Source: a virus (lineage: Duplodnaviria; Caudoviricetes). Taken from it: a stretch of DNA of 40,590 nt. This document shows, in pieces, positions 5,172-40,590 of this stretch (positions within the stretch are counted from its first letter, which is position 1; each line of letters begins with the position of its first letter). The notes beneath the pieces were generated by a model. It saw only the letters and a program-made list of their open reading frames with translations. It was not told the origin of the DNA and did no database searches. The position numbers were made by a program, and so were the translations under genes. The stretch lies in the IMG/VR virus record IMGVR_UViG_3300024999_000209, positions 1 through 40,590 of that record, one strand, 5' to 3'.

Positions 5172-5179
5172 ATTTACTA

Positions 5180-19082: not shown

Positions 19083-20333
19083 TCATTTGCTTGATTTCCA
19101 AAATTGCTTATTTACATCTAAAATTTGCTGATATTCTTTAACAAAATTAAGCTCAAAATTTCCTGTCATAGTGTCCCTTGCCTTTGCAACTGCGGCCTCA
19201 AGAATGCCTTTTTTATCTGATTCCGAGTTATAATAATCATCCCTGTATAAGAAAATTACAAAGTCGGAATCCTGCTCTATAGATGAACTTTCCTTTAAAT
19301 CGCTTAATATTGGTCTTTTGTTTGATCTTGCCTCGGGCGCACGGCTCAACTGTGCTAAACAGAACACCGGAACATCTAAGGTTCTGGCTAAAAGCTTCAA
19401 TCCTCTTGTTAAATAACAAACTTCCTCTCTTTTATCCCTAAAGCGGTCACTGGTTTGTAAAAGAGTTAAATAGTCTATTATTATTACGTCTAAGTTGCCC
19501 TGTCTTTTTAAAAGCCTGGCATAGCTTTCTATTTTGTTAAGAGTTATATTATATTCGTCATTTATCCACACTGGGAGTTTATTTATAGAGCTATTAAGGT
19601 TATTAAAGTAATCGGCCTGCTTATCTCCAAGCTCGTGACCTCTAACTAATAAAGAGTTTATATGTAATTCCGCACAGTTTAAACGTTTTCTTATTTCCCT
19701 TTTTGACATTTCCAAGGATATAAATAAAACATTTTTTTTCTGATCTACTATTCTACGGCATAAATTAAGAGCAAAGGCGGTTTTCCCGGCACCCGTGGCA
19801 GCTGCTATTGTGATATACTCCCCGCCATAAAAGCCCTTGGTTATGTAATCTAACTCCTTAAAGCCTGACTTTATAACCTTGTCATAGGTATTACAATAGT
19901 GTTCAAGGTCGGAATCCTCATCTTTGCCTATATGGGAAAATATTTCCTTGCTTGTGTTTTCCTCAATAAAACTTTGAAGTTCTTTTATGAGGCTTATATC
20001 TTCAATAGTTTCAGCGTTTTTTATACTGTCTTTTAGCTGTCCTTCAAGAAGTCTTTTACAAATAGAGGAATAATTAGCCGATGTTATGTAATTCATACAG
20101 GCTTGCGCTATTATATCTCCTATTTTTACATTGTATTGTTTGTTATTTTCAAGGTAATCAATAACAGCGCCGCCATCAATATACTCAAGGCTTTTAACTG
20201 CGTTGATTATTTTTTGACAATTACTATCAAAACGGTACAGCTTAAGAAATTCGAGAATGTTTTTCCTATTAATAGGACAATTTAAAAGCATTCCTATTAT
20301 TTCTATCTCGTAATCTATCCGTGCAGTTGCCAT
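19083..20333 (-). CDS. dnaB: Replicative helicase DnaB-like
   Basis: AATGAGKT, SLEM, IIDYL, LAQLSR..E.R..KRP.LSDLKESSSIEQDSD. Confidence 0.92.
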   Translation of the reverse strand: MATARIDYEIEIIGMLLNCPINRKNILEFLKLYRFDSNCQKIINAVKSLEYIDGGAVIDYLENNKQYNVKIGDIIAQACMNYITSANYSSICKRLLEGQLKDSIKNAETIEDISLIKELQSFIEENTSKEIFSHIGKDEDSDLEHYCNTYDKVIKSGFKELDYITKGFYGGEYITIAAATGAGKTAFALNLCRRIVDQKKNVLFISLEMSKREIRKRLNCAELHINSLLVRGHELGDKQADYFNNLNSSINKLPVWINDEYNITLNKIESYARLLKRQGNLDVIIIDYLTLLQTSDRFRDKREEVCYLTRGLKLLARTLDVPVFCLAQLSRAPEARSNKRPILSDLKESSSIEQDSDFVIFLYRDDYYNSESDKKGILEAAVAKARDTMTGNFELNFVKEYQQILDVNKQFWKSSK

Positions 20334-21019
20334 TTCCCATTATCCTTTACTATTTCTTTTGCCTGAGAATTACTTGCAATTTTTAAAATATAATTATCGT
20401 TGTTACAGTTGGGCGGCACATTCGCATGCTTGAATTTTGTAGCAATCTCAACCAAATTGACATTTTTGTACGTTTTTTTAATACTACCCAAAAGGACTTT
20501 TATGGCTTTTTCTCTATTTTCAAAAGTATGGTAATTTGATTCGAAAATTATTTTAAAAAATTCATCTTCGTCGGATAATTCTATTCTATTCTGTTCTGTT
20601 CTATTCTGTTGTTCAAAATTCGTCGAATGATCGTCGAATGATCTTCGAATGATCTTCGAATTACTTAAAGTTTTATAGCCATATTTACCTAATAACTCGC
20701 CCGATGGGAGTGGATAAGTAAAATTAGGCCTATCTACCCTCTGATGTTCAGAGAATGTAATAATCCAGATATACTCCTGCCCGCTGGATTCGTATATCGT
20801 AACAAGGTTATTTTTAATTAACTCATCAAGAAATTTTTCTACGTCAACATTGTCCGCCGGGAAAACATTCATTTTATTTTTTTTAGGACTATTCTTCAAA
20901 AGACCGTTGTCATCAGCAAAGTTAAGCATTCCGATGAATAATAACCTTGCCCCAAAAGAACATTCAGCTAATTGCTCGTTTCCCCACAATTGATGTTTTA
21001 TTATTCTATTTCTTGCCAT
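20315..21019 (-). CDS. Phage replication initiator (O-like, wHTH)
   Basis: MARNR.IK...W..E.L.....ARLLFIG..NFADD.G family; upstream of DnaB; internal iterons. Confidence 0.8.
   Translation of the reverse strand: MARNRIIKHQLWGNEQLAECSFGARLLFIGMLNFADDNGLLKNSPKKNKMNVFPADNVDVEKFLDELIKNNLVTIYESSGQEYIWIITFSEHQRVDRPNFTYPLPSGELLGKYGYKTLSNSKIIRRSFDDHSTNFEQQNRTEQNRIELSDEDEFFKIIFESNYHTFENREKAIKVLLGSIKKTYKNVNLVEIATKFKHANVPPNCNNDNYILKIASNSQAKEIVKDNGKWQLHG
20581..20663. repeat. Putative lytic origin: four tandem 11-bp iterons plus a pentamer tract
   Basis: TCGTCGAATGA x2, TCTTCGAATGA, TCTTCGAATTA (20620-20663); CT(A/G)TT x6 (20581-20610). Confidence 0.75.
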
Positions 21020-25241: not shown

Positions 25242-25582
25242 TGTGCTATCCTTTAATTAAATCCCTATAACCTGTCAGAGATTTAGGAAAAGGGCCGCAC
25301 GGGGGCGGCATGAGGATCATCTGCCTTGCTGTAAATTCAATGCCTGCTTTACTGGCTGGCCGCATACGCAGGTCTTTAAGTGTGTGCAATGTGTTTTGCT
25401 TCCAGTGTTTAACCAATATTGACGGCATGTTTCTTTGTGCTTGCAGTCCATTTTTATAATCCCTTCATTTCTACTAATACCTGGTAATCGTTAATGCTTG
25501 TTTGATGTGGCGGGTTATACCCGGTTGCGATCATAGCCAGTAAGATTATTATCAAAGTTATTCTCAAAGTGCGCCTCCTTTT

Positions 25583-25999
25583 TTAATCACAAACTAAACT
25601 CTGAATATTAACCCCATCAAGCTTTTCCTGTTCAGTCAAATTGCATTCTGAACAATTGCCACTTAATCCTGAACAATCGCCCCTTAATCCTGAACAATCG
25701 CCCCATAATCTTGAACAATTGCCCCATAATTCTGAACAATCGCCCCATAATCTTGAACAATCGCCACTTAATTCTGAACAATTGCCACTTAATCCTGAAC
25801 AATTGCCACTTAATCTTGAACAATTGCCCCATAATCCTGAACAATTGCCACTTAATTCTGAACAATCGCCCCATAATCTTGAACAATCGCCACTTAATTC
25901 TGAACAATTGCCTAAATTTCCATTATCAACAATAGTTTTACTGCCATCAGTATTAATAATAAATAATTCTTTTTTGACTCTTTTTAGCGCCTTTTCCAT
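25583..25999 (-). CDS. Cys-ladder heptapeptide-repeat protein
   Basis: G[N/D]CS[E/R/G]L[S/W/R] x12 plus a partial unit; AAAGGA RBS. Confidence 0.8.
   Translation of the reverse strand: MEKALKRVKKELFIINTDGSKTIVDNGNLGNCSELSGDCSRLWGDCSELSGNCSGLWGNCSRLSGNCSGLSGNCSELSGDCSRLWGDCSELWGNCSRLWGDCSGLRGDCSGLSGNCSECNLTEQEKLDGVNIQSLVCD
25646..25912. repeat. 21-bp tandem repeat, about 12.7 units
   Basis: - strand consensus GGC RAT TGT TCA RRA TTA (AGT/TGG/AGG). Confidence 0.95.
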
Positions 26000-26147
26000 T
26001 TTATTTTTCCTTTCGTGTTTGTAATAAAAGCGGGGCTAACTGTGATCGTGTCGTTGAGCGTGCTAGCCCCGGAGTAAAGAGTGTTTGGGTCTTAGTATGA
26101 TATTGTGCGCTGTTGATCGCCCCGACAGCGTGCGGGTTTTGTTTGAT

Positions 26148-26176
26148 TTGACTTGGAAATATCTTTGGTATATAAA
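26148..26176 (+). promoter_or_regulatory. PRE-like promoter antisense to cro, pointing at cI
   Basis: TTGACT-17-TATAAA just past the cro stop. Confidence 0.55.
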
Positions 26177-26181
26177 ATAGA

Positions 26182-26361
26182 TTAAACAGATAACCTATAA
26201 GTTTGAAAGATAAAATCGATTAGTGGCTTGCTGGTAGAAGTGCCAGCTAGCACCTGGTGGACAAAAACCCTTGAACATCCGTATGCTCTGGCAATACCTG
26301 ACAGGGTAATACCGAGGTCTTTAAGTTCTTGTCTAATGTTAAGTAATTGTTTTTTAGTCAT
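26182..26361 (-). CDS. Cro/Ner-like HTH regulator, 59 aa (not in the ORF track)
   Basis: MTKKQLLNIRQELKDLGITLSGIARAYGCSRVFVHQVLAG...; divergent from the repressor. Confidence 0.8.
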   Translation of the reverse strand: MTKKQLLNIRQELKDLGITLSGIARAYGCSRVFVHQVLAGTSTSKPLIDFIFQTYRLSV

Positions 26362-26396
26362 GATTGATTTAATCTTTACTTTATTAACTTGATATA

Positions 26397-26426
26397 ATAG
26401 TAAACCAAACTTGACTTTCTGTCAAG
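26397..26426 (-). promoter_or_regulatory. Early lytic promoter overlapping a palindromic operator
   Basis: TTGACA-17-TACTAT on the - strand; CTTGAC-TTTCT-GTCAAG at 26410-26426. Confidence 0.75.
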
Positions 26427-26453
26427 CATTAAATTTACAATTCGTAAAGTACC

Positions 26454-26810
26454 ATGAAAATCCAACAAGCACACGAAAAATTAATAGAAATAAAATGTGT
26501 AAAAATCCCAGAGGGGGCGTTTACTGAGCCGCTGGGTATTACAAAACAAGCAGTAAGCCAAAGATTTAGAAAAAATAGCGAATTGACTGAAGGTCAACTT
26601 AAACAACTTGAAGAATATTTTCAGGTAAATTTATCCGAACCCACGCCCACCATCCATGATAAAAACGATATCCCTGATGAGCTGGGAATAACCGAAAACG
26701 ACTGGAATATGATAACTGATTTAGTTCTTGACCAGAGAGAGGTTTTCTTGCTTATGTGCAAGAAGCTTAAGTCTGACCCGCAGGCGGTCATTAAGTTTCT
26801 TTTTGGCTAA
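26454..26810 (+). CDS. CI-like HTH repressor without an S24 peptidase domain
   Basis: LGITKQAVSQR HTH; divergent from cro. Confidence 0.7.
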   Translation: MKIQQAHEKLIEIKCVKIPEGAFTEPLGITKQAVSQRFRKNSELTEGQLKQLEEYFQVNLSEPTPTIHDKNDIPDELGITENDWNMITDLVLDQREVFLLMCKKLKSDPQAVIKFLFG

Positions 26811-27013
26811 TAATTTAATTTTATTTTTAACGTAATTTTTCGCAACAAAAACACCGCCAGCAGTAACCATTCCCAACACTCCTGTATAACATATAAAGCA
26901 GGGTTACAGCTTACTATACACATTGTAATTACACAATAGATATTTACAAAAGTTATTGTTTTGTGTATACTCAATAAGTATAAAAAGAAAATTCTATTTT
27001 AAAAGGATTTTTA

Positions 27014-27196
27014 ATGTTATTGTATAAAATATTTAGAACCCAAAAAGATTTTGTTTTAAAATATTATAAAAACAAATTTGGTAAAATTATAGTAAAAATA
27101 CAACCAAAGAAAAATTTTTGGCCTGGGGTGTTGGGCAATTTCAGGACAATAAGTTTTGACAATACGGATAGCCAAAGGGAAAAGAATCCTTATTAA
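27014..27196 (+). CDS. Basic hypothetical protein
   Basis: AAGGA RBS; promoter-like TGTGTATACT upstream. Confidence 0.5.
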   Translation: MLLYKIFRTQKDFVLKYYKNKFGKIIVKIQPKKNFWPGVLGNFRTISFDNTDSQREKNPY

Positions 27197-27274
27197 GCAA
27201 ACTTGTTTTGCGCCGCTGGTGATCGAGCCGATTTTAGAGGATTTGTATAATTATAAGCGGGCGGTGGAGGATTT

Positions 27275-28066
27275 TTAATTCTTGTTTATTATTGCGGCAA
27301 TAAGTTTGCTTAAATCGCACTTATAGGTGCCGCTGGTAGTTATACAGTTAATTTCTACTACTTTGGGATAATAATTTCCCTTTATTAAGCATAAATCAAG
27401 GGTAAAATCTTTTAAATGCTTAACTTGTGTTGCAATCATTTTTGCATGGTTAATTATGTAATCTTCCGGTTCCTTTTCTTCCTGTTCTTCCCAAGAATAT
27501 GAGCTATAAGTTACAACCTCGTTATCAAACACCCAGAAGCGCCACTCATGAAGTATTTCTTTATGAGAGGACACCAAAACCAAACAATCTTCATTAGCAG
27601 GACTTAAGAATGATATTTCTTTATCCCATTCTTTTTTACTTACTGAAAACCCTGTAAACGTCTTAAATCCATTATCAGGCTTGATAAATAACTTATCTGA
27701 ATAATAAAGGTGTTTAAATATCTGGTTTTTAAACAAGGCTATCTTTAGAGCCCAAAAAGGCATAAATAAACAATCTTGGTTTAAATAATATTCAGGGAAA
27801 TACTTCATATAATGTGTAACATAAAAATCTAAAGGATTTGCGCCCATTCCAATTAAGCCTGAATGTCTTGCCCAGTTTAAAGGAACGAGTCCTCTTATAT
27901 TTTTTCTACCTATAAGCTGTTTTATGAGGCTTTCGTTTTTAGGCTCAAAATAGTGCCCCCTTATAATTTTAGGGTTCCAGCTTAGGCTTTGTATGATTTT
28001 ACTTGCTTCAAGCAAACTATCTTCACTATCAAAAATCCTACCATGTATTAAAAAATCACCGTTCAT
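27275..28066 (-). CDS. ATP-grasp protein (DUF4343 / R2K-like)
   Basis: LFIKPD..KTFTG, EWRFWV, FTLD, VVEIN...TSG.Y. Confidence 0.8.
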   Translation of the reverse strand: MNGDFLIHGRIFDSEDSLLEASKIIQSLSWNPKIIRGHYFEPKNESLIKQLIGRKNIRGLVPLNWARHSGLIGMGANPLDFYVTHYMKYFPEYYLNQDCLFMPFWALKIALFKNQIFKHLYYSDKLFIKPDNGFKTFTGFSVSKKEWDKEISFLSPANEDCLVLVSSHKEILHEWRFWVFDNEVVTYSSYSWEEQEEKEPEDYIINHAKMIATQVKHLKDFTLDLCLIKGNYYPKVVEINCITTSGTYKCDLSKLIAAIINKN

Positions 28067-28123
28067 AACAATCCTTTCTTTTATTAAATCTCAGGCGGCT
28101 GGCTGGCGTTTCTAGGAGCGTTT

Positions 28124-28327
28124 TTAGTGACGTGCTAGTATTCTAACCTTAGCTTTATTTTTGCAGGCAGGGCATTCTAAAATTAGTCCTTTAAGAGTTT
28201 CATTTGCTATGTGGTACACCGCAATCCATGAATGAAAACACTTGCGGCACTTAACCTCTGCCACAGACCAAACCGGCTTGCCTGCCTCAATGTCTATTAC
28301 GTTGTCACCCAACTCTGGATTTTGCAT
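28124..28327 (-). CDS. Small zinc-ribbon protein
   Basis: CRKC.H.W.AV...LECPAC. Confidence 0.65.
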   Translation of the reverse strand: MQNPELGDNVIDIEAGKPVWSVAEVKCRKCFHSWIAVYHIANETLKGLILECPACKNKAKVRILARH

Positions 28328-28461
28328 AGTATTTCAATTCTCCACAATTTTTACATTTTAAAAGTAAATGTTCCTGTTCAGAATCAATCTCTTTGAGCCT
28401 TATTAACTCACAAGGATTTAAGCCAAATATATGTAAAATTTTATCCATTATTCCCCGCCCT

Positions 28462-28740
28462 CTATACTTCCCAATCTTTATTATATTCTGAGTCGTCAGA
28501 TAATATATTTTTAATACTGCTAACCCATCGGTAAATTATTTTTTTAGCAATTAATGGCAATTTATTAAACTCTTCTAATCTTAAATGTAATAATAATAAC
28601 TCTCCATAAAAACCTTCTATAGACCAACGCTGCTCCCAAGGAGTTTTAATATTTTCAGCTATTATTAAAAGTTTTCTAAAATCATTTTCTACAATATTAA
28701 AATGTTCTTTTTCAAATTTTATCCTTTTAAATAGAGTCAT
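28462..28740 (-). CDS. Hypothetical protein flanked by 13-bp direct repeats
   Basis: ATTCCCCGCCCTC at 28450-28462 and 28739-28751. Confidence 0.65.
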   Translation of the reverse strand: MTLFKRIKFEKEHFNIVENDFRKLLIIAENIKTPWEQRWSIEGFYGELLLLHLRLEEFNKLPLIAKKIIYRWVSSIKNILSDDSEYNKDWEV

Positions 28741-28871
28741 TCCCCGCCCTCCCGCAGTTCCTTGTCAAATATTAGTGGTCTTTTTAAAGCCTCTGCCAGC
28801 TTCTCATTATACTTAGGTGGCTTGCTAAGCTCGTTCAACAACCATTCAAAATCTTCTTTTTCAAGTTCCAT
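28737..28871 (-). CDS. 44-aa peptide resembling the DUF1778 antitoxin C-terminus
   Basis: MELEKEDFEWLLNELSKPPKYNEKLAEALKRPLIFDKELREGGE. Confidence 0.6.
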   Translation of the reverse strand: MELEKEDFEWLLNELSKPPKYNEKLAEALKRPLIFDKELREGGE

Positions 28872-29013
28872 TTCGCAGTTCCTTCAAAATTTCCTGCCTG
28901 AACCCCCGGCGCCGGTAGCGCACGAGCTGGCGCTTGCCGTAGGGAGATTTGTCCTGCTGGCACCAACAATATTTATATGATACTTTTGCTTCATTTGCGT
29001 TTTTTGGGCGCAT
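28861..29013 (-). CDS. 50-aa basic hypothetical protein
   Basis: MRPKNANEAKVSYKYCWCQQDKSPYGKRQLVRYRRRGF... Confidence 0.5.
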   Translation of the reverse strand: MRPKNANEAKVSYKYCWCQQDKSPYGKRQLVRYRRRGFRQEILKELRNGT

Positions 29014-29524
29014 GGCCTTTCCCCTTATTGTATTCAAATGTCCAACCTTTTGTATGCTTGCGTTTTCCTATTAAGCAACTTAAGATGTTTCCCCTGTTTA
29101 AGTTGCGTAAGCGTGCAAATTCTCTTTGATTATTGACAATAAAAACTTCACCAGAAGGCGATATCGCCTTTATTGAATATGATTTTGATTTATTAATCTG
29201 TTGTTCTCTACATGTTGCCCATCTACAATTATTGGGTTCATAATTGCCATTAATATCAATTCTTTCTAAAGTTGTTTGTTTTTCTCCAAACTCTTCTACA
29301 TGTTTTAAATAAGATTCATACATATCTTCTTTAAAATTTTCAAATTTCAACCATCTATCACAAATTTTAATACCCCTGCCTCCATAATTCTTATAATTGC
29401 TAGCCGTGGGAGCAAGGCAGCGAAATTTCATACCTGCCAATATTACATAAAATCTTGTTCTAGATAAACCATGCTTATAGCTGTAATTATATCCTTTTGC
29501 AAATTGTCCATTAGGTTTTTTCAT
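28991..29524 (-). CDS. HNH homing-type endonuclease with a C-terminal NUMOD1-like HTH
   Basis: YGGRGIKICDRW..FENF, TLERIDINGNYEPNNCRWAT, I..CL.GKRK.TKGW.F.Y. Confidence 0.85.
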   Translation of the reverse strand: MKKPNGQFAKGYNYSYKHGLSRTRFYVILAGMKFRCLAPTASNYKNYGGRGIKICDRWLKFENFKEDMYESYLKHVEEFGEKQTTLERIDINGNYEPNNCRWATCREQQINKSKSYSIKAISPSGEVFIVNNQREFARLRNLNRGNILSCLIGKRKHTKGWTFEYNKGKGHAPKKRK

Positions 29525-29709
29525 TGCGCCTGCCTCCGGTTAGTCTACTTAACCCTAATAAGTGTTTTATTCTTAGCCTGCCTATTTAATTCAATGATAT
29601 ATTTTTTTAGCTCGCAAACCTGCTCGGCGGTTAAAGTTATTTTAGAACCTGGTTTAAAGTCACTGAATAAAAATAATAAAATTGAGTTAATCATCACGCC
29701 CTCCGCTGG

Positions 29710-29877
29710 CTAAAATCCTAAAAATGAAAGCTTGCAAACTGCTATAAGCTTTTTCTTTTCTTTTTGTTCTTCACATTCAAGGTTTAAACAGTAATCGCTA
29801 TGTTTCATGCAATACCCTGTATGACAAAAATTTAAGCATTCTTTTATTTCATTATATTCATTTTTCGTTTTAGTCAT
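29710..29877 (-). CDS. 55-aa Cys-rich hypothetical protein
   Basis: AGGAGG RBS; translated by hand. Confidence 0.5.
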   Translation of the reverse strand: MTKTKNEYNEIKECLNFCHTGYCMKHSDYCLNLECEEQKEKKKLIAVCKLSFLGF

Positions 29878-29900
29878 ATTTCCCTCCTATGGCTGTTAAT

Positions 29901-30077
29901 TTAATCAAAAATAGTTGCTTTTATATCACTTAAAACAATATGGCGGCCTTGTTTTTCATAAACCTGCATGCATTGCGGGCAAACCATTCTGTCTATGTCA
30001 AATAAATAATCGCATTTTTTGCATTTTAAAGATTTTCCGTCATTTAAAATACGCCAGCTCGGTACACCAACGCTCAT
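29901..30077 (-). CDS. 58-aa zinc-ribbon protein
   Basis: CKKC...CPQC; ATGA coupling. Confidence 0.55.
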   Translation of the reverse strand: MSVGVPSWRILNDGKSLKCKKCDYLFDIDRMVCPQCMQVYEKQGRHIVLSDIKATIFD

Positions 30078-30262
30078 GCTAATTCATCCTCCTTGTAATG
30101 ATATGCTTGCGATCTACCCTTTAAAACCCGTAAAGCATTTTTTAATCTATTTTTAAAACACATAACCCCAAAAAAAGGGTAAGGTTTAGCTATGTAATAA
30201 CAGCCGTTTACCTCGACCTTGTTTTCATAGAATTTAATCATATCGTCAATTAATTTACTCAA
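30074..30262 (-). CDS. Hypothetical protein (probable TTG start, MSKLIDD)
   Basis: AAGGAGG 7-8 nt upstream of TTG at 30262. Confidence 0.65.
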   Translation of the reverse strand: MSKLIDDMIKFYENKVEVNGCYYIAKPYPFFGVMCFKNRLKNALRVLKGRSQAYHYKEDELA

Positions 30263-30284
30263 AATAATTTCCTCCTTTTTTAAA

Positions 30285-30326
30285 ATTATATCAGCAATTG
30301 ACACTCAACGCAATACTGTGTAAAAT
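30285..30326. promoter_or_regulatory. Overlapping divergent sigma70 promoters
   Basis: + TTGACA(30298)-17-TAAAAT; - TTGCGT(30313)-17-TATAAT. Confidence 0.75.
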
Positions 30327-30332
30327 ATTATT

Positions 30333-30638
30333 ATGATTAAATTTGGAACTAAATTAAAGCAGTTAAGAATAGTGGCAGGCGTGAGCCAGCGTAAACTTGC
30401 AGAAGCGGCAGGCATAGATTTTACCTATGTTTCAAAGATTGAAAATAACGTATATGCCTCGCCATCAGAGGAAACATTAATCAAAATGGCAGAGCTTTTG
30501 CAGGTCGAAAAGGATTATTTAATCCTGCTGGCTGGTAAAATACCCAGCGATTTAAAAGAGGATTTGCTAGCCCTGCCATACGAGCAGTTCCGGCGGGTGC
30601 TGGCGTTGGTGCGGAAGGTAAAGGAGGAACGGGAATGA
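30333..30638 (+). CDS. XRE-family HTH regulator, probably leaderless
   Basis: FG..LK.LR...G.SQR.LA...GI...Y.SKIE; ATG 6 nt after the -10 box. Confidence 0.88.
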   Translation: MIKFGTKLKQLRIVAGVSQRKLAEAAGIDFTYVSKIENNVYASPSEETLIKMAELLQVEKDYLILLAGKIPSDLKEDLLALPYEQFRRVLALVRKVKEERE

Positions 30639-30793
30639 GAAGCGAACAGGAAATAAAAGAACGTATTGCAAAAGGCAAAAAATATATGGATGAAACTAAA
30701 AACAATCAATACGCTTTATATGAGCGAAGAATGGTCGCAGGAGAGCTTATTGCTCTTGAGTGGGTTTTAAATTTGCCAAAATTTAATTATTAA
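30635..30793 (+). CDS. 52-aa LEWVLN-motif protein, paralogue 1
   Basis: MRSEQEIKER...LIALEWVLN. Confidence 0.7.
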   Translation: MRSEQEIKERIAKGKKYMDETKNNQYALYERRMVAGELIALEWVLNLPKFNY

Positions 30794-30805
30794 AAAGAGG
30801 AATAA

Positions 30806-30958
30806 ATGAAAACAGAAAAAGAAATAAAAAATAAATTAACAAAATTAAAAAAGAGTAATAACAAGAGGCTATGCCCTTTATATACAGAGTTAGGAATGAT
30901 TGAAATTCTTGAATGGGTGTTAAATAAAGAAGCCCGCTCGCTGGGCGTGGCGGAATGA
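30806..30958 (+). CDS. 50-aa LEWVLN-motif protein, paralogue 2
   Basis: MKTEKEIKNK...IEILEWVLN. Confidence 0.7.
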   Translation: MKTEKEIKNKLTKLKKSNNKRLCPLYTELGMIEILEWVLNKEARSLGVAE

Positions 30959-31101
30959 GTGATAAAATAATATGTAAAACCTGTACACACAAAGACGAAA
31001 AAAGCAAAGAAAATGTTTGCTGGATGGACTTAACTCAGGACAAGAAAGAATGCCTGTTCTATTTAAAGGATGGTAAAAATATTCTTGAAGGTGTGGTATA
31101 A
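30955..31101 (+). CDS. 48-aa Cys-rich protein
   Basis: CKTC.H...C...C..Y; ATGA coupling. Confidence 0.55.
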   Translation: MSDKIICKTCTHKDEKSKENVCWMDLTQDKKECLFYLKDGKNILEGVV

Positions 31102-31152
31102 TAATTAAAGTTGACGGCCCAACGTTCTATAAAAACCACGATAGGTCCTAAG

Positions 31153-31215
31153 ATAAAACCGCCCTCTTTAAACCGGATGAATTCCTTCAGTGTTTAAATG
31201 GCGGTTTTTGCTTTT
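31153..31215. terminator. Long bidirectional terminator-like hairpin
   Basis: AAAACCGCC...TTAAAC...GTTTAA...GGCGGTTTTT. Confidence 0.65.
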
Positions 31216-31268
31216 GTGTGCTATAATAATATTACTAAGCGGCCAGTTGCAACTGCGCCGCATTTTTG

Positions 31269-31649
31269 TTAGCTGGCCTGCTGCTGTGCCTGTAAATTGC
31301 GAAGCACTCCACGAAAAAACTTTTTAGGCGTGGTGCGGATTTCTCTCAGGCTACTTAACGTGATATCAACCGCCTGCTTGACTAAAAAAGGGTTTTCCCG
31401 GGCAACCACGGCGCCGCTGTTTGGAACCCCCCAACGGTCAAGCTGGCTAACAATTCGCTTGTAATCGTCTTTGCTTATCCTGTGTATACACGGTGTTATA
31501 CTTTGTTTATACTCTGTTTTTTTATAACCTTGTATAATACCAGGTTTATACTCCGTATTCTGTTCAAAAGGGGGTGAAGTCTTTTGGTAACGCTGGCGAA
31601 GCTGTTCGGCAAGTAACACCTGGTTTAACGATTCGAGATCTTGTGACAT
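31269..31649 (-). CDS. Putative plasmid-mode mini replication initiator
   Basis: Central 11-bp DNA repeats, C-terminal helical PKKFFRGVLRN motif, long regulated leader, divergent par-like gene. Confidence 0.5.
   Translation of the reverse strand: MSQDLESLNQVLLAEQLRQRYQKTSPPFEQNTEYKPGIIQGYKKTEYKQSITPCIHRISKDDYKRIVSQLDRWGVPNSGAVVARENPFLVKQAVDITLSSLREIRTTPKKFFRGVLRNLQAQQQAS
31484..31556. repeat. 11-bp iteron-like repeats inside the putative rep
   Basis: TTATACTTTGT (31496), TTATACTCTGT (31507), TTATACTCCGT (31546), variant GTATACACGGT (31484). Confidence 0.65.
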
Positions 31650-31683
31650 AAATATCCTCCTGGCTAATTTTTCGCATAACCTA

Positions 31684-31756
31684 TTGACGCCCTGGAGGAA
31701 TTTTGTTAATATTAATCTTGAAAGAAATCTTTGCCCTCCGGGGCATTTTTTATTTA
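31684..31756 (+). ncRNA. Candidate antisense countertranscript (promoter, ~37 nt RNA, terminator)
   Basis: TTGACG-17-(TG)TAATAT, then TGCCC-TCCG-GGGCA-TTTTTT; lies within the rep leader. Confidence 0.5.
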
Positions 31757-31773
31757 TATGAAGTTTTTGCCAA

Positions 31774-31814
31774 TTGACTTAAAATAGTATACGATTTTAT
31801 GGTGTACGGGTCAA
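31774..31814. promoter_or_regulatory. Overlapping divergent rep and par promoters
   Basis: - TTGACC-17-TATACT (31814-31786); + TTGACT-18-TATGGT (31774-31803). Confidence 0.65.
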
Positions 31815-31845
31815 GGCATTTTAGAACAGTTTGGGAAAGTTTAGT

Positions 31846-32352
31846 ATGGAAAAATTAAAACTAACTGCCAAAGAATTACAGGACAGGCTTAATTGGAAGA
31901 AGTCAAAAGTATACTATTGGATTAATACGAAAAAGTTTGAAACTGTTGACGCTGAACTCGGATTAAAAATACTCATAACCGAGGCCAAGCTTGAAGAATT
32001 AAAAAATGATAATTCTTCTGAACAGTTTGAAGTAGAGTTTGAAAAAGTTGAGGAAAATTCTAAACCAGTTCAAAACAGTTCTAAAATTTCTGATAATGAA
32101 GTAATTTTGGCCATGCTCAGCATGCTCAAAGATCAACTAAATAACAATAATAATCAAATAAATCTACTTGAAACTTCCGAGAAAAGTACTAAAGATACTT
32201 ACTATGAAGTAAAAGCAAAGTACGAACATTTGCAGGAAATTTACAAACAATTGCAAACTGAACATTCTGAACTAATTAAAAAGTTTGAAGCCCTGCAAAA
32301 AGTTCTTGAAAAAGAACGTAAAAAACCTTTCTGGAAAAGAAATATAATGTAA
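31846..32352 (+). CDS. HTH + coiled-coil protein, plasmid partition-like (pSK1 Par / DUF536-like architecture)
   Basis: LTAKEL...LNWKKSKVYYWI HTH, acidic linker, coiled coil, KKPFWKR tail. Confidence 0.6.
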   Translation: MEKLKLTAKELQDRLNWKKSKVYYWINTKKFETVDAELGLKILITEAKLEELKNDNSSEQFEVEFEKVEENSKPVQNSSKISDNEVILAMLSMLKDQLNNNNNQINLLETSEKSTKDTYYEVKAKYEHLQEIYKQLQTEHSELIKKFEALQKVLEKERKKPFWKRNIM

Positions 32353-32379
32353 TTTACAATCTTACAAAAGGAGGATTTT

Positions 32380-32565
32380 ATGGGATTCTTTGAAAAACAC
32401 GGCATTAGTGATCCAATGGAATTTGTAAAAGATGAAATTAAATTTAATGAATTTTATGAAAGTCTTACAAATGAAGATATCAAGGAGCTTTTAAAAGAAT
32501 ATTCAGACAATTATATAGAAAACATTAGGCTTAAAAAGGAACAACTAAACAAAAGAAAACGATAA
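32380..32565 (+). CDS. Hypothetical protein
   Basis: AAGGAGGA RBS. Confidence 0.65.
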   Translation: MGFFEKHGISDPMEFVKDEIKFNEFYESLTNEDIKELLKEYSDNYIENIRLKKEQLNKRKR

Positions 32566-32605
32566 AAAAGCCCAGCAAGTTCAGAGGATTGCCGGGCTGG
32601 GTTTT
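32564..32605. terminator. Terminator between convergent operons
   Basis: A-run then AGCCC.GCAA...TTGC.GGGCT. Confidence 0.6.
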
Positions 32606-32625
32606 ACTATATTGGGAGGAGGTTT

Positions 32626-33117
32626 TTAGTATTTCCATTTATTTTTGCGCATAGCAAATTTGACTGCCTGGTATTTCATCCAGGCACCATCGCCGAATAG
32701 TTTTGTAAATTTACCCCATTTTTTAACGCCATTGTCTAGCATTGCATGGTAAAACATATCTTGAGCATCATCCCAGCTGCACACAGGCGCACCGCTTAAT
32801 CCTCTTTCGCAAACATAATCGTGCAAAATTCCACCTACTAGCGGGCAGCCCCAAGAATTAGTCTCAACAATGGCCGCTTTGGTTTCCCCATTTTCAATTA
32901 GTTCTTTTACGGCAAAGTAGTTGTCGCCTGTTAAATGTTCCAGGACATCTGGATTGCTGTGACCATTGGTCAAAAAGTCTATTGGTATAGTAATCTTTTT
33001 GCCTTTGTATTCATAGATATACGGTTTTGTTATACGTAAAAGGAATTTTTCTTTGTCCCAGATAGGACCATTTTTGCCCCAGATTGCTTCAAATTCTCCT
33101 TTTTGTATCCAGCTCAT
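32626..33117 (-). CDS. DUF1353-like protein
   Basis: ITIP.DF.TNG.S.P, ILHDY, D.F..AM...GV motifs; in the lysis region. Confidence 0.7.
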   Translation of the reverse strand: MSWIQKGEFEAIWGKNGPIWDKEKFLLRITKPYIYEYKGKKITIPIDFLTNGHSNPDVLEHLTGDNYFAVKELIENGETKAAIVETNSWGCPLVGGILHDYVCERGLSGAPVCSWDDAQDMFYHAMLDNGVKKWGKFTKLFGDGAWMKYQAVKFAMRKNKWKY

Positions 33118-33129
33118 AATTTGACTCCT

Positions 33130-33522
33130 TTACTTATCGACTTCTCCAAAGTAAACGCCCGGTTTGTCCGGGAATGTGGCAACGTGAATGAAATTAGATT
33201 TTTTATACCAGATCACTTCTTTGAAAAGACCGATATTTTTAGCAACGTGAAACAAAGCTGGAAGATCATTACAAGTTAAATCTGTTGCATCGGCTTCTTT
33301 TGTGCTTGCTTGATGCCTGCTACTAGGAACACCTCCAACGCTGGCATTGTGCTTCATACACCTACACCCAGAAGTTACTGTCAGTTTTAATCCATATCTG
33401 TACCGTAATGCCTGCAGGTTAACTAAATGCTGATTACTCATATTAAAAAGCTTGCAGCCGCACTTGCAGCGTAATTCCAGCTCTGTAAAGTTTTTAATCT
33501 CTGCTTTCAGCGTCATTGTCAA
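33130..33522 (-). CDS. Peptidase M15-family endolysin
   Basis: NF...EL.CKCGC, VTSGCRC.KHN..VGG..SSRH, ATD, FIHV. Confidence 0.85.
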   Translation of the reverse strand: MTMTLKAEIKNFTELELRCKCGCKLFNMSNQHLVNLQALRYRYGLKLTVTSGCRCMKHNASVGGVPSSRHQASTKEADATDLTCNDLPALFHVAKNIGLFKEVIWYKKSNFIHVATFPDKPGVYFGEVDK

Positions 33523-33664
33523 ACCCTCCGGTCATTGTATCCAGCTCGCCGAATAACATCTCGGCATACTCGTAAAGCTTAGCCTCCCGGCTCGAGAAAT
33601 CCGGGTCCAGGTAATCCTTTAATTTTTTAAACTTAGCTTTGAATAGGTGTAGCGTGGTGGTCAT
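33494..33664 (-). CDS. Hypothetical protein (start MTTTLH)
   Basis: ATGA coupling to the upstream gene. Confidence 0.5.
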   Translation of the reverse strand: MTTTLHLFKAKFKKLKDYLDPDFSSREAKLYEYAEMLFGELDTMTGGFDNDAESRD

Positions 33665-33873
33665 TTTAACACCTGAAACAATCCCCATAGGAAAGCACCT
33701 ACTCCACCAAGGGAATAAACTATTTTGCTGAAAAGCTTATTGTCTGATTCAAGGGTATCAACACGCTGGGAAAGCCCTTTTGTGCCATTTCCGCAAATGC
33801 AAACATACATAGCGGATATTTTTTTCTCCATTTCAATTACTCTGTCTTCGTACTTGCAGCTATGCTCTTTCAT
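33661..33873 (-). CDS. XhlA-like / holin-like protein
   Basis: NG..GL..RV..LE motif and a C-terminal TM. Confidence 0.6.
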   Translation of the reverse strand: MKEHSCKYEDRVIEMEKKISAMYVCICGNGTKGLSQRVDTLESDNKLFSKIVYSLGGVGAFLWGLFQVLK

Positions 33874-33893
33874 TGCGCTATATCCTCAACAAA

Positions 33894-34172
33894 CTATATC
33901 TCTTGCAGTGCGGTAAAAAACCCTTCATTAATTAAGTCCTGTGCGGTTACAATTGTTATTTGATAACCAGTTATAAATTGTTGCTGTTGTTCTAAAGTCA
34001 GCTCGTTTTTTCTTTCGTCTACTCGCCTAAATATAGCGGTACCGTCAGATAATTCAATAATGTTATTATCCCAACAAATGGTTCCATCTTTAGGTAAGCC
34101 GCCAAGCTCCCTGATTTTTTGCTCTGCTGCTATTGCTATGTTTATATTTGGAAATCTATAAAATTCAAGCAT
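33894..34172 (-). CDS. Putative tail fibre chaperone/accessory protein (start MLEFYRF)
   Basis: GAGG RBS; follows the receptor-binding-like gene. Confidence 0.5.
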   Translation of the reverse strand: MLEFYRFPNINIAIAAEQKIRELGGLPKDGTICWDNNIIELSDGTAIFRRVDERKNELTLEQQQQFITGYQITIVTAQDLINEGFFTALQEI

Positions 34173-34180
34173 TATTACCT

Positions 34181-34942
34181 CTATACCGTAGGCGGACTTG
34201 CTATATAAGGATGCTCTGCTGGTAATTGAGCAGTATAACCAAAAGTATGGGCCGTCCATCCTTCAAGTTTTTCTTTCTCTGTAGATGTTAAAGAATCACC
34301 CAATAATAAAAGATAGTACATATCGCCACCGTAGCCGAAGTTATTTTCTCCACCCCTACGACCAATATATACAATATTCTGGTTGTTAACCCATTCAAAA
34401 AGACCAAAATTGTTTGAATGGTAATCTGATGTAGTATGGTTTTCAGCATTACTTGACCATGCATCACCAGCAATAGCATATTTACCCTGCGCAGTCCCTG
34501 CATTATCAAAAGATATAGAATTTGCGCCTATTCCAGAAGAGCCACCTAAAAATAATTCGCCTATTAAATTGGTGGCTCCTGAGGCCACAGAGTTAACTTT
34601 ATCAGCTCCACTGATATTTGCGTAGACAAGTGCAATCGTTTTAACAGAAGAAGTGCCTATATCAAAATAGTCACCATAACTGACCAGACTACCGCCTGTA
34701 AAAGTAACTTTTTCATTCACGCTATCCCAATTTGCCTGATAAGTACCTGAACTTTGCGTTATATGGTTTGTTCCGTAAATATCATTCCACTGGGAAATAT
34801 TTCCGCTGCTCTCAATACCTTGGAAGCTTCCGCCGCTTGCTACCGAAATATATCCGCCGATAATATTATCTAGCTGTGCAGGTGTCCAGAGGGTGCTGGC
34901 AGGCTTAATAAACCCCTGAAAACTTGGTATTACAAAGCTCAT
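34181..34942 (-). CDS. Lectin/LamG-like tail receptor-binding protein
   Basis: WTP.QL, ISQW.D..G.NH.TQ, IG.R, L...E..KLEG..AH......LP..HPY...PP. Confidence 0.65.
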   Translation of the reverse strand: MSFVIPSFQGFIKPASTLWTPAQLDNIIGGYISVASGGSFQGIESSGNISQWNDIYGTNHITQSSGTYQANWDSVNEKVTFTGGSLVSYGDYFDIGTSSVKTIALVYANISGADKVNSVASGATNLIGELFLGGSSGIGANSISFDNAGTAQGKYAIAGDAWSSNAENHTTSDYHSNNFGLFEWVNNQNIVYIGRRGGENNFGYGGDMYYLLLLGDSLTSTEKEKLEGWTAHTFGYTAQLPAEHPYIASPPTV

Positions 34943-35391
34943 GCCGCCGTATCCCCGCCTAATAATACATTGTTAGTTGCATAAACATACAGAGAGGCCG
35001 CCGCATACTGCCCCGCTGTTTTCGTATGGGTTTGCCTATTCCTTAAAGTCATTGAACCCGACCCCGCAAATGTCACCTGGCCGGCTCCGATCTGAATTAC
35101 AGTGCAGGAGAATTCAGCGGCTAATGTATCAGGAATAGTTATAGTAATTGCGCTGGCATTGCTTGCCGTGATTACTTTGCCGTTGTCTATGGCTTGTATA
35201 GTGTATGTGGTGCCTGTTTGGGCGTTGGCGTCGCCCCACTCAATATTAGCAACGTTATTAAGATTTAAACCGGCCTTTAAATCAATTAGTAATATTTTTT
35301 TATCAGCGGTGGGCTGGCCTATATGGATATAATCAGCGTTTATATCAAGAGATGCCGCTGCGCTTAATGCAGTTATTCTTATATCAGCCAT
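34939..35391 (-). CDS. Tail fibre component
   Basis: MAD.RITAL, N.QTGTTYT....D.GK, IQ.GAGQVT, L.GD.A motifs. Confidence 0.7.
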   Translation of the reverse strand: MADIRITALSAAASLDINADYIHIGQPTADKKILLIDLKAGLNLNNVANIEWGDANAQTGTTYTIQAIDNGKVITASNASAITITIPDTLAAEFSCTVIQIGAGQVTFAGSGSMTLRNRQTHTKTAGQYAAASLYVYATNNVLLGGDTAA

Positions 35392-35686
35392 TTATTTCCC
35401 TCACTGACTCCTCAAGTAAATTATTTAACAATTGCTTGAACTTTCTATAATCCTCCGGCTTTGGCGAACGTGCGAGCCTGTCAAGCTCGACGGGCAGCTC
35501 TTTTAATTCATCAATCTTGCGCAGTACGAAGTTCTTTTTTAATGATCCCTGCCCTTTTCCATAGAACAGATACTCTGCATTGACACAGTGCCGCTTAATC
35601 AGTTCTCTGGTGTCTTTGTGAGGCTTTAGTTTATTATTCAGCCATAAAACCCCACGGATGAACGTGGGGAAGTGTTTTTTAAGCAT
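35384..35686 (-). CDS. LL-H-holin-like soluble domain
   Basis: AE.LF.G.G.G..KK..V and LEESV.E.N motifs; no clear TM. Confidence 0.5.
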   Translation of the reverse strand: MLKKHFPTFIRGVLWLNNKLKPHKDTRELIKRHCVNAEYLFYGKGQGSLKKNFVLRKIDELKELPVELDRLARSPKPEDYRKFKQLLNNLLEESVREING

Positions 35687-35689
35687 AAT

Positions 35690-35809
35690 TTACTCCAATA
35701 AAAGTATTAGTTTATTGTTCTCGTGGTCAACAATATAGTTGCCGCTATGGTCGACCATGAAATAATTTGAGACTACGTTATGATATATTCTCCGCCATAA
35801 AAACAGCAT
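35690..35809 (-). CDS. 39-aa tail peptide
   Basis: ...FMVDHSGNYIVDHENNKLILLLE. Confidence 0.5.
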   Translation of the reverse strand: MLFLWRRIYHNVVSNYFMVDHSGNYIVDHENNKLILLLE

Positions 35810-35810
35810 T

Positions 35811-36125
35811 CTAGCCGCCTATAAATGATATAGCGGCGTTGCTTGCAAGCGCACGGCCTAGAATATCAGCTAAGTTATCACAAGGTATAAATATAGGCGC
35901 ATCTGTGGAGGCAAGTGCATAGCCGTCAGTATCATCAACACCCACGCCGCCAAGATATACCGTTCCTGTTGTTGTTTTTACGTTAACGCCCTGCTTTAAT
36001 ACCGTGCTATCTCCTATGGACACAGCGGTCCCAGGGGCTAAAAATGTTTTTCTACCATGTACTACTGAATCAGGGGTTATGCCCTCCTGTACGGCGTTTT
36101 TCATTGAGTCAAATCCCATTACCAT
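35811..36125 (-). CDS. Small beta-rich virion protein
   Basis: VYLGG..V....GY.L motif. Confidence 0.6.
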   Translation of the reverse strand: MVMGFDSMKNAVQEGITPDSVVHGRKTFLAPGTAVSIGDSTVLKQGVNVKTTTGTVYLGGVGVDDTDGYALASTDAPIFIPCDNLADILGRALASNAAISFIGG

Positions 36126-36128
36126 AAT

Positions 36129-36497
36129 TTATACTCCTTGTAATAAACTAATAAACTTTGTTCTAATGTCTTTTAATTTTGTTGTTGTAAGTTCTGCGGT
36201 CTGCATTGTTTCTAATGCTCCTGCAATATCGCCACTATTAAGGCAGGCCTCCACCTCTTCCTTAATAGGTTTAAATTGAGCTTTCAGCCCCCTATCAATT
36301 TTTTCCCACTCAAGTAATAGTATTGCCTTTTGGGATTCTAAAGCCTGTTTCGCCTCATATTCTGCCTTCAATGTAGCATTCTCTTTCCATCCTAATTTCC
36401 AAATGTCACCTATTAAAACAGGCACGCCAACGTGATAAAACGGCTCCGGTTTATTTAAATAATCTTTTTCCTGTATATACCCTTTGTCAGTGTGCAT
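36129..36497 (-). CDS. Hypothetical protein, possible fibre chaperone
   Basis: Coupled to the tail fibre gene. Confidence 0.55.
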   Translation of the reverse strand: MHTDKGYIQEKDYLNKPEPFYHVGVPVLIGDIWKLGWKENATLKAEYEAKQALESQKAILLLEWEKIDRGLKAQFKPIKEEVEACLNSGDIAGALETMQTAELTTTKLKDIRTKFISLLQGV

Positions 36498-37612
36498 TAT
36501 GGCCTCCGTGATAATTGATAACCTCTAATAAAAATTTGCAAGCTTGGGCCTGCTGTTATTGCGTTACTTACTCTGTATCTGATTTGACTACTTGCGTCAC
36601 ATTGGAGCAACATTTGGCCTTGTGCGTGGTTAGAGTCTGATTCCGCGGTATATACACTTGCTGACGCCGCGGTATCAGTTTGACTGGTTTCTGTTATAAG
36701 AATAAATCTAGTGTCTGTCTTTGCATCGTAATTAAAATTTATTAATACTTTAGAATTTGCAGGTGCTGTTAATGTTGCTAATTGGGCCGATGTACTGTTT
36801 GATGTTGTATCATTAACGTCCCTAATAGGAACATTGTAAATAACCTCAACCCCGCCCCCTTCTATTTCATAAGTTTTATGTCCAATAATATTACTTGAAG
36901 CATCAAGGGGGGGAAGATAGTGTATCGGCACAGCCGATATTTCATCGAATCCAGCGGCTACTACTGCGGCATCAGTTAATAAACTTGCACCTGTTACATC
37001 ATCAGTAAAACCAAAATCCACGCTGTCATCAGTAGACTTACAGAGCATAAAACCATATAAGCATTGCCCAGAAGCCAGAGTGTCATTGTCATCGAGTCCG
37101 CCTGCATCGTTGCCCGCCGCCCATGTTGCATCAATGCGTTTTGTTATTTCCGCAGTGCCAGCTTTTGAAATTATTCTTACGTTATAAGAGGCATCACGAA
37201 CCAATACATGACTCTGATAATTTGTATTAGGACTGTAAAAATTAATATCGTGGTCGGTATCGGTGTCAAGCTTGCCAATAAGGTTTTGGACGTAATTAAT
37301 ACCTGCTATAATATTTAAGTCAGCCCACTCTGGCGCTGTTGCCCCTGAGTTCATCCTATAATACTGTAAAGCAGTGCCCTTTGCTAATTTAGCAAGCGTA
37401 GTAGTGGCGGAAGCATATATTGTGTCTCCGGCAGTGTATGAGGCCAAACCAGTACCACCTTCATTAACTGGGCGGGTTTCCGTTTCCAGTGTATCCAGTC
37501 GTGTATCGTGGGCATTATGTCCCTGTCTTAATGTTTCTAAATTTGTATTTATGTCAGGAGCCTGCGCCGAAGTCCCATTAGTGAACTGCGTTAATGAACT
37601 TATTTGTGCCAA
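36497..37612 (-). CDS. Tail fibre/spike protein
   Basis: F..GT.A.A..IN.N, V..GGTG..SYT.GD..YAS....LAKL..GT, KR.DA.WAAG...GG.D. Confidence 0.75.
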   Translation of the reverse strand: MAQISSLTQFTNGTSAQAPDINTNLETLRQGHNAHDTRLDTLETETRPVNEGGTGLASYTAGDTIYASATTTLAKLAKGTALQYYRMNSGATAPEWADLNIIAGINYVQNLIGKLDTDTDHDINFYSPNTNYQSHVLVRDASYNVRIISKAGTAEITKRIDATWAAGNDAGGLDDNDTLASGQCLYGFMLCKSTDDSVDFGFTDDVTGASLLTDAAVVAAGFDEISAVPIHYLPPLDASSNIIGHKTYEIEGGGVEVIYNVPIRDVNDTTSNSTSAQLATLTAPANSKVLINFNYDAKTDTRFILITETSQTDTAASASVYTAESDSNHAQGQMLLQCDASSQIRYRVSNAITAGPSLQIFIRGYQLSRRP

Positions 37613-37624
37613 TTTTATTCTCCT

Positions 37625-37882
37625 TTATGAATCGGTATGACCTGTGTATAATCCGTTTTTAAAATGTAGAGTCCTAGTGCCTCCTCCAACTTTAACCACT
37701 GCAACGTCAGCGGTAGCCCCGGCGGTGCCGTCGGTAGCTTTGAGATCGTCCCACTCAATGCCGGACTCGTCCGTTTTGACAAATGCGGTCTTTCCGGCGT
37801 TGGCCCGGTAATCGTCCACGTCGGGGAGGTGGTATATTTTGCTATATACCGTGTTTAGGTTTTTGCGGTCGAAACTTGTCAT
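37625..37882 (-). CDS. Small virion protein
   Basis: C-terminal TL.F.NGL.TG motif. Confidence 0.6.
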   Translation of the reverse strand: MTSFDRKNLNTVYSKIYHLPDVDDYRANAGKTAFVKTDESGIEWDDLKATDGTAGATADVAVVKVGGGTRTLHFKNGLYTGHTDS

Positions 37883-37934
37883 TTATTTATCTTTTTTGTG
37901 GTAAAGTGATTTATATTAAAATTTGAGGTGTGCT

Positions 37935-38057
37935 GTGGAATGGCATTATATTTTGTTTATATTTGCTGCTATTGCTTTTAACCAAAGCTTGTTTAAAGTA
38001 TTGGATAGCATAAACACTAAGTTATCTTTGATTTACAAAAAACTTGATGAGCAGTAA
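37935..38057 (+). CDS. 40-aa antisense cassette membrane peptide
   Basis: GTG after GAGGTG; upstream TGTGGTAAAGT extended -10; hydrophobic N-terminus. Confidence 0.5.
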   Translation: MEWHYILFIFAAIAFNQSLFKVLDSINTKLSLIYKKLDEQ

Positions 38058-38077
38058 GAATAAAGGAGTGTACGCCG

Positions 38078-38329
38078 ATGGAAGAAAAAGAGGGAAAAGG
38101 TTTATCAAAATACATTAATCCGCCTGATGAGTGGTTTCATTACCCGCAATTTGAAAGCGTAAACGGGTTCATGACTCATTTATTTTTTATAGGCTTTATG
38201 GTTTCAAATTTTAGCTACCCGGACTATAAATGGTATTGGCTTTGGGGTGGGTTTGCTTGGATTATTGGTTATTCTATATATGAAAAATTAAAAAATCAGG
38301 GTGATGCCGGGGCAGTCAATAAAGATTGA
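38078..38329 (+). CDS. Antisense cassette two-TM membrane protein
   Basis: AAGGAG RBS; two hydrophobic aromatic-rich segments. Confidence 0.65.
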   Translation: MEEKEGKGLSKYINPPDEWFHYPQFESVNGFMTHLFFIGFMVSNFSYPDYKWYWLWGGFAWIIGYSIYEKLKNQGDAGAVNKD

Positions 38330-40580: not shown

Positions 40581-40581
40581 C
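40456..40581. repeat. Terminal direct repeat, right copy
   Basis: Identical to 2-127. Confidence 0.95.
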
Positions 40582-40590
40582 ACCGCATCA

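Follow-up and report, generated by a model that had tools for sequence, protein, structure and literature searches.

The window, the whole stretch of 40,590 nucleotides analysed here, is the entire 40.6-kb record of a tailed phage that is 100% complete by the tool's estimate and labelled linear; its first and last ~125 bases repeat each other, and a PHROG scan revealed genes for capsid, portal, terminase and endolysin. Near its right-hand side lies a divergent gene pair (Table 1), which consists of orf126 and a gene for a Par-like protein whose start was set at the ATG at 31846 from homologues. The sigma70-like sites at 31767–31814 bear out the overlapping promoters claimed for this pair in a preliminary description of the DNA, but orf61 (32380–32565), which that description had included, is missing from the closest relative and does not belong to the module. 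The sequence is present in groundwater metagenomes of one study, which is possibly its source and in which contigs of two samples cover rep and par with zero differing letters.

Table 1. Features of the rep–par cassette and of the lytic replication module (positions in the window).
Feature	Position	Strand	Remarks
orf126, predicted winged-helix-less Rep (mini-Rep), 126 aa	31269..31649	-	N-terminal helix, repeat-coded linker, basic four-helix domain at residues ~57–125
orf126 ribosome-binding site AGGAGG	31655..31660	-	Before the ATG; from sequence
Candidate origin inside orf126	31480..31556	-	ACRRAGTATAA at 31496, 31507 and 31546; degenerate copy at 31485; GTATAC-type palindromes
A+T stretch (76%) within the candidate origin	31500–31549		
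rep promoter-like site, TTGACC-17-TATACT	31786..31814	-	10 of 12 positions
par promoter-like sites	31767..31803	+	Overlap the rep promoter
Antisense promoter-like site, TTGACG-17-TAATAT	31684..31712	+	Extended -10
Candidate counter-transcribed RNA, ~40 nt	31718..31757	+	Ends in hairpin TGCCCTCCGGGGCA and U-tract; complementary to rep leader
Par-like protein, 168 aa	31846..32352	+	HTH_17-type HTH, linker, coiled coil, C-terminal KKPFWKR tail
AMAGTTY(GAA) repeats, candidate Par-binding (centromere-like) sites	31826..32226	+	par leader and coding linker; motif post hoc and partly coding
Lambda-O-like lytic initiator	20315..21019	-	PHROG replication initiation protein, E 7e-29
DnaB, after the O-like initiator	19083–20333		Outside the cassette

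The AlphaFold model of orf126 shows a helix at residues 3–23, a low-confidence linker and four helices at 60–125 (pLDDT >90), and prediction for the conserved domain also gave four helices (pLDDT 96). A profile search of 1.84 billion representatives yielded 14 homologues, every one of 62–152 aa, in which the N-terminus is variable, the linker is of low complexity and a domain of ~65 residues is conserved. Mini-Reps, given as 109–186 aa for the class, have intact frames across many phages, and their domain is conserved down to 20–29% identity and is basic in all 19 aligned rows (net +2 to +9). No Pfam or PHROG family was found for orf126, none of the 19 members is assigned to a Rep or DnaD family by Pfam, and the PDB gave no useful sequence match.

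Structural comparison was equally sparing. Foldseek returned nothing at E<=0.001 in PDB or BFVD, and the best VIA-align matches were unrelated helical bundles, below which the DnaD C-domains rank at Z 4.2–4.6 (2zc2: Z 4.5, with 60 residues aligned at rmsd 3.4; 2i5u: Z 4.2, with 59 residues at rmsd 3.2; unrelated rows score no lower). Among the named ESM Atlas clusters, RepB_C, RepA_C, DUF6017 and DnaB_2 lie closest, at 0.81–0.87, and are leads only. The C-terminal helical domain proposed earlier is therefore borne out by the model, while its kinship to DnaD and RepA-C stays at the level of a lead. Like the DDBH2 domains (DnaB_2; RepA_C, RepB_C, DUF6017), orf126 has a small basic helical bundle after a linker, and its last helix, P-x-x-Y-F-x-x-V/I/T-x-x-x-L, resembles the DDBH2 motif YxxxIxxxW: Tyr is common at the first position (Phe in the window) and the middle one is aliphatic, but the final Trp occurs in none of the 19 rows, being replaced by Leu or another residue. 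It further differs from DDBH2 in the absence of a Pfam or PDB sequence match and of the DDBH1 winged helix, and in the modest fold scores given above. The search of plasmids for the gene pair also came back empty, since tblastn of orf126 and Par against PLSDB gave no match for either protein; nor did P0007 match INPHARED by tblastn, or alignment A4 match viral_contigs or genome_contigs. Using a full-length relative as the tblastn query revealed only weak matches to Bacillus HTH/DnaD-domain genes.

The origin of orf126 became clearer from full-length relatives. A domain profile built from mini-Reps alone, searched against 4044 ORFs, found two proteins of genome G006 at E 2.9e-8 and 2e-6, with the next best at 0.11. 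These proteins, of 334 and 354 aa, carry an N-terminal HTH_36 winged helix, are scored by PHROG as O-like or replication initiators, and are each divergent from an HTH/coiled-coil gene. The mini-Rep domain corresponds to the post-linker domain of such full-length Reps, thus indicating that orf126 is a Rep minus the winged helix. The earlier proposal of a Rep lacking the usual N-terminal winged helix is upheld by this homology and by the shared rep–par layout. A RepA_N-type winged helix was likewise not found in orf126, where no Pfam family matches and a single N-terminal helix leads into the low-confidence linker; the gap to the divergent gene is only 196 bp. Full-length rep–par cassettes with the antisense unit described below lie amid housekeeping genes at L020/L045 and L021/L046 (G006) and at L024, L029 and L030 (G013), two or three per genome, and it is possible that the host class has secondary chromosomes or megaplasmids bearing such cassettes.

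The central 11-bp repeats reported for orf126 are readily reproduced. ACRRAGTATAA (TTATACTYYGT on the other strand) has three exact copies in the window, all in orf126, and 11 matches at up to one mismatch; TRF detects a period of 11 with 3.5 copies at 31480–31519, and the five-copy repeat family in the 5′ part of the gene was matched by none of 60 shuffles. About 31 residues, not ~25 as first estimated, precede the first exact repeat. As in RepA_N replicons, the repeats of this candidate origin lie inside the rep gene. Repeats beat all 60 shuffles in each of the six mini-Rep genes tested, and chosen linker windows of three full-length Reps showed no excess (34–51 of 60 shuffles as good). TCATG occurs 10–14 times, counting both strands, in the first 114–180 bases of rep at L008–L010, L014 and L048–L051, whose domains form one subtype, and is absent from the rep start in the window and L001, where AGTATAA and CGTWATATA repeats are found instead. 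Motif counts across loci thus indicate that the rep repeats go with the Rep domain, which they track across three Par types, and the par repeats with the Par HTH. The motifs were picked after inspection, conserved codons make up some of the copies, and the co-variation of repeats and domain, which share one gene, may be mere linkage. Two further ideas failed: that Rep regulates itself by way of a promoter copy of the iteron (263 and 243 of 300 shuffles as good in the window; CATG elements are also present in the spacers of full-length-Rep loci) and an enrichment of DnaA boxes (51 matches against 51.8 expected). No exact TTATNCACA box is present in the module.

Comparison of the window with L001 revealed a replaced block, which runs from codon ~37 of orf126 up to its last ~10 codons, and an inserted HNH gene; both lie between flanks that are 97–99% identical. 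Such a replaced repeat-and-domain block between near-identical flanks is as expected of an exchanged specificity block, and the difference could reflect a homing-assisted swap of replicon specificity. The inserted endonuclease has 212 aa (L001 7474–8740 against window 31174–31661). The identity of the 5′ part with L001 is not a sign of strong constraint, because a second 99% block (31174–31298) lies on the far side of the HNH gene, which points to recent exchange. At window position 31525, a contig in run X4 has the 5′ part of orf126 in common with the window but continues differently, perhaps as a third cassette variant. Beyond the rep stop, the non-coding stretch 31080–31270 contains two TGnTATAAT elements and inverted repeats, with no Rfam match.

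Alignment of the rep–par spacers revealed a further element: past the rep ribosome site they share, on the par strand, a promoter of the TTGAC-17-TGnTAnAAT type, a stretch of 40–55 nt, and a hairpin with a U-tract, a unit that spans 31684–31757 in the window. In all six mini-Rep loci the folding z-score of the hairpin stretch lies between -2.2 and -3.3, and double-sided changes occur in four of eight pairs across ten loci. An RNA model built from these ten loci matched the held-out mini-Rep spacers L048–L050 (3/3, E 2.7e-7 to 6.4e-6), and its best match in each of seven held-out full-length rep–par loci lay in the spacer on the par strand, every one of them weak (E 0.07–2.7), so that the unit was recovered in 10 of 10 held-out spacers. 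It gave no match in L005, L006 or L028, and only E 0.98 elsewhere than the spacer in L023; Rfam has no match in the module. The unit is a candidate antisense RNA against the rep leader, like RNAI of pSK41, and adds to the preliminary description a third element of the pSK1/pSK41 analogy.

The right-hand ORF has the HTH–linker–coiled coil–KKPFWKR order that had been read from it: its HTH scores as HTH_17 at E 1.8e-5, just below the Pfam cut-off, a coiled coil follows, and the protein ends in KKPFWKRNIM. It thus shares with pSK1 Par, RocS and RacA an N-terminal HTH, a coiled coil, a membrane-type tail and the lack of an NTPase partner, as PMC11500499 describes them. Unlike those proteins, however, neither the window Par nor eight Par-like relatives match DUF536, and the C-terminus of many relatives is a hydrophobic, transmembrane-like segment instead of an amphipathic helix; in L002, L003, L011, L013, L014 and L048–L050 and in P0019–P0026 this segment stands in place of a short basic-aromatic tail. 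The tail of the window Par is modestly amphipathic (hydrophobic moment 0.38, 76th percentile). Around the par start, the five tested loci with a KSK[VA]YYW-type Par have 6–9 copies of AMAGTTY, and L001 and L048–L050 have none; at one mismatch, AMAGTTYGAA has 4–7 copies in nine of nine loci with such a Par, against 0, 0, 0, 0 and 2 in five others, so that these repeats follow the Par type.

Pars of the window's family face mini-Reps in L008, L009, L010, L012 and L014 (L012 being near-identical to L010) and full-length winged-helix Reps in L002, L003, L011 and L013. In L001 and L048–L050, the gene opposite the mini-Rep is of another HTH/coiled-coil type. A divergent HTH/coiled-coil gene is present at 10 of the 13 distinct mini-Rep loci with DNA context; the other three are L005, which is frameshifted, L006, which is a 62-aa fragment, and L051, whose contig ends 210 bp upstream. 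In L005 (1–575), repeats lie upstream of the mini-Rep gene, the frame is broken and a hydrogenase-like gene follows directly. In phages the pair mostly adjoins lysis genes, which is a usual place for a lysogeny module.

The phage has a second initiator, on which the preliminary description was silent: a lambda-O-like gene followed by DnaB, with an 11-bp repeat of its own (TCGTCGAATGA, 3.8 copies, 20620–20661). The O-like protein of G004 is 100% identical to that of the window, yet G004 has a different Rep domain, different repeats and a different Par. Conversely, G005 encodes PolA, a primase–helicase and SSB and keeps the cassette, with no O-like match among the 22 of its 36 ORFs scanned. The cassette is therefore independent of the lytic module. 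Temperate phages such as P1 and N15 also have separate plasmid and lytic replication modules, but the window phage is unlike them in that no ParA/ParB NTPase system and no protelomerase were found among the window ORFs scanned.

The view of the phage as integrase-less held up well. Six-frame searches of the window revealed no tyrosine integrase (PF00589) and no resolvase (PF00239), and PF00589 did not exceed the cut-off in any of 11 virus records (7 complete); the sole weak match (13 bits) falls in a 150-aa ORF of G004 whose counterpart in the window scores as a virion or tail protein. PF00239 was absent from the six records tested and PF07508 from the five tested. No attachment-site joint is apparent among the contig matches listed for 24000–40590, which, being contigs, cannot show absence, and the GC skew of the window merely tracks the coding strand. 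The window thus combines virion and lysis genes with a predicted plasmid maintenance module and no integrase, as a phage-plasmid would, and the homologues of the pair occur in integrase-less phages with repeats of their own rather than mainly in integrating phages or in chromosomes without repeats. Host clues are indirect and mixed: L014 is labelled Gastranaerophilaceae and L012 lies in a bin labelled Elusimicrobia. Genome G001, which carries L014, presumably belongs to the class Vampirovibrionia, which is the likely host of these phages.

Together, these data suggest that the cassette is a replicon by which an integrase-less temperate phage persists in the form of a low-copy plasmid prophage and for which orf126 is the predicted initiator, a reading to which we assign a probability of roughly 65%. 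The following mechanism is proposed. The rep mRNA would start near 31779, and its ~130-nt leader would be throttled by the ~40-nt antisense RNA, which would set the copy number as RNAI does in pSK41. The mini-Rep would use its basic four-helix domain to bind the repeats that its gene contains, multimerise, perhaps through the N-terminal helix, open the A+T-rich stretch among the repeats and recruit the host replisome. In the manner of RocS and pSK1 Par, and without an NTPase, the Par-like protein would bind the AMAGTT repeats around its own start, oligomerise by its coiled coil and use its C-terminal tail to anchor the plasmid at the membrane. On induction, the O/DnaB module (the PolA/primase module in relatives) would take over, and exchange of the repeat-and-domain block would produce replicons that share a phage backbone and are compatible.

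The closest known systems are the RepA_N replicons pSK41 and pSK1. In pSK1 a single par gene is divergent from rep, and the cassette shares this arrangement and the rep-internal repeats in the linker-coding region, so that the pSK1-type logic first proposed is supported. The Rep of pSK41 binds the origin by its winged helix and primase by its C-terminal domain, an antisense RNA acts on the pSK41 rep leader, and the repeats lie in the linker-coding part of rep (PMC5703833), while in pSK1 one protein, Par, makes up the partition system (PMC11500499). The cassette differs in that it has neither a RepA_N nor any other winged-helix domain, its Reps are of 109–186 aa as opposed to 319, and its carrier is a tailed phage that has a lytic origin of its own and a likely Vampirovibrionia host. 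The candidate antisense RNA is also shorter (~40–55 nt with one conserved hairpin, compared with ~83 nt and two in the pSK41/pSK1 type). The cassette is thus best read as pSK1/pSK41-like in logic and not as a RepA_N member. Also close to it are full-length HTH_36 Rep–par cassettes of the same host class (L002, L003, L011, L013, L020, L021, L024–L026, L029 and L030), which have the same layout and antisense unit; those of L020 and L021 share the helical domain with mini-Reps, but the full-length proteins, unlike mini-Reps, keep the N-terminal winged helix. These full-length cassettes were found here and not in the literature searched, and our searches of open-licence literature did not find the mini-Rep cassette described.

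A bolder version of this reading, for which we would give somewhat less than even odds, is that mini-Reps are a new minimal class of theta initiator (109–186 aa) that would recognise their own iterons sequence-specifically by a lone DnaD-C-like four-helix domain, without a winged helix. With a single Par anchored in the membrane and the ~40-nt antisense RNA, such an initiator would make up a complete ~1.1-kb replicon of a Vampirovibrionia phage-plasmid family, in which swaps of iterons and domain would create incompatibility groups and whose full-length ancestors would reside on secondary replicons of the host. In the main reading, too, binding by the four-helix domain is favoured, because the cassette has no winged-helix gene, none of the O type was found among the 22 ORFs scanned in G005 and the repeats change with the domain. 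It would reverse the known division of labour, since in pSK41 the winged helix binds the origin. In DnaD, the C-terminal domain binds DNA and the N-terminal domain oligomerises (PMC2978336).

The main rival to binding by the four-helix domain is an adaptor role: the cassette would still be a plasmid replicon, but orf126 would only recruit primase or helicase while host DnaA, or a full-length winged-helix Rep from a secondary replicon of the host, reads the repeats in trans. The division of labour in pSK41 Rep (PMC5703833) speaks for such a role, as do the full-length Reps with this domain amid housekeeping genes in G006. We nevertheless consider it unlikely, given that the repeats differ completely between domain subtypes, even in two phages with 100% identical O-like initiators, that, of the 401 genomes searched from G001's class, only 2 have a match to the domain, and that the module lacks the exact box named above.

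Somewhat less probable still is that orf126 is a degenerate or dominant-negative Rep remnant serving incompatibility or superinfection exclusion, with the prophage replicating from the O-like or a cis origin. The missing winged helix, the broken copies in L005 and L006 and the presence of another initiator in the phage would fit a remnant, but the intact frames and a domain conserved to 20–29% identity in many phages would not; moreover, orf126 is kept in G005, where the 22 ORFs scanned include no O-like match, and occupies the same slot, with the same antisense layout, as full-length Reps.

We regard as quite improbable that the pair consists of lytic accessories or regulators, with orf126 assisting O/DnaB and the HTH protein acting as an excisionase or transcriptional regulator. 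The PHROG match of the Par HTH to 'excisionase and transcriptional regulator' (E 2.5e-5) and the lack of a Pfam or PHROG family for orf126 could be taken this way; however, no integrase turned up on which an excisionase could act, the pair is kept alongside unrelated lytic modules and among housekeeping genes, and the HTH proteins have a long coiled coil with membrane-type tails. A type I toxin–antitoxin addiction pair of orf126 and the antisense RNA, suggested by the small size of the protein and the cis-antisense RNA in the leader, is the least credible alternative, since orf126 encodes a soluble helical domain with homologues among Reps, and full-length Reps have this RNA unit in front of them too.

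Should the plasmid replicon with a mini-Rep initiator prove correct, origin recognition by initiators of the O/RepA/DnaD type would be possible without a winged helix, and a 70-residue domain with natural repeat variants would provide a test case. NTPase-free, membrane-tethered partition of the pSK1 Par and RocS kind would extend to phages of a distant lineage, and the natural transmembrane Par versions make the tethering model directly testable; the mechanism of partition by pSK1 Par and RocS is described as still open in PMC11500499. A Rep without Pfam or PHROG match would also flag phage-plasmids missed by marker-based screens, and the cassette would be a candidate vector backbone for non-photosynthetic cyanobacteria.

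Several observations concern the surroundings of the cassette. In L023, L025 and L026, from three genome bins, a rep–par cassette lies beside a terminase-like gene, and these are probably further plasmid prophages. Directly beyond par, a reverse transcriptase gene is present in L008 (6117–7640, PHROG E 3e-83), L009, L010, L012, L048 and L049, and is DGR-like by its position near tail genes. Elsewhere in the window, a stretch after the capsid gene (5107–5178) gave an Rfam Termite-leu score of 29.9 bits, below the gathering score of 51, and is probably a terminator hairpin, and an R2K-clade ATP-grasp gene at 27275–28066 (E 2e-13) is nearly identical in L001. An ORF at 25583–25999 consists of a 21-bp tandem repeat in 12.6 copies that codes for GxCSxLx heptads.
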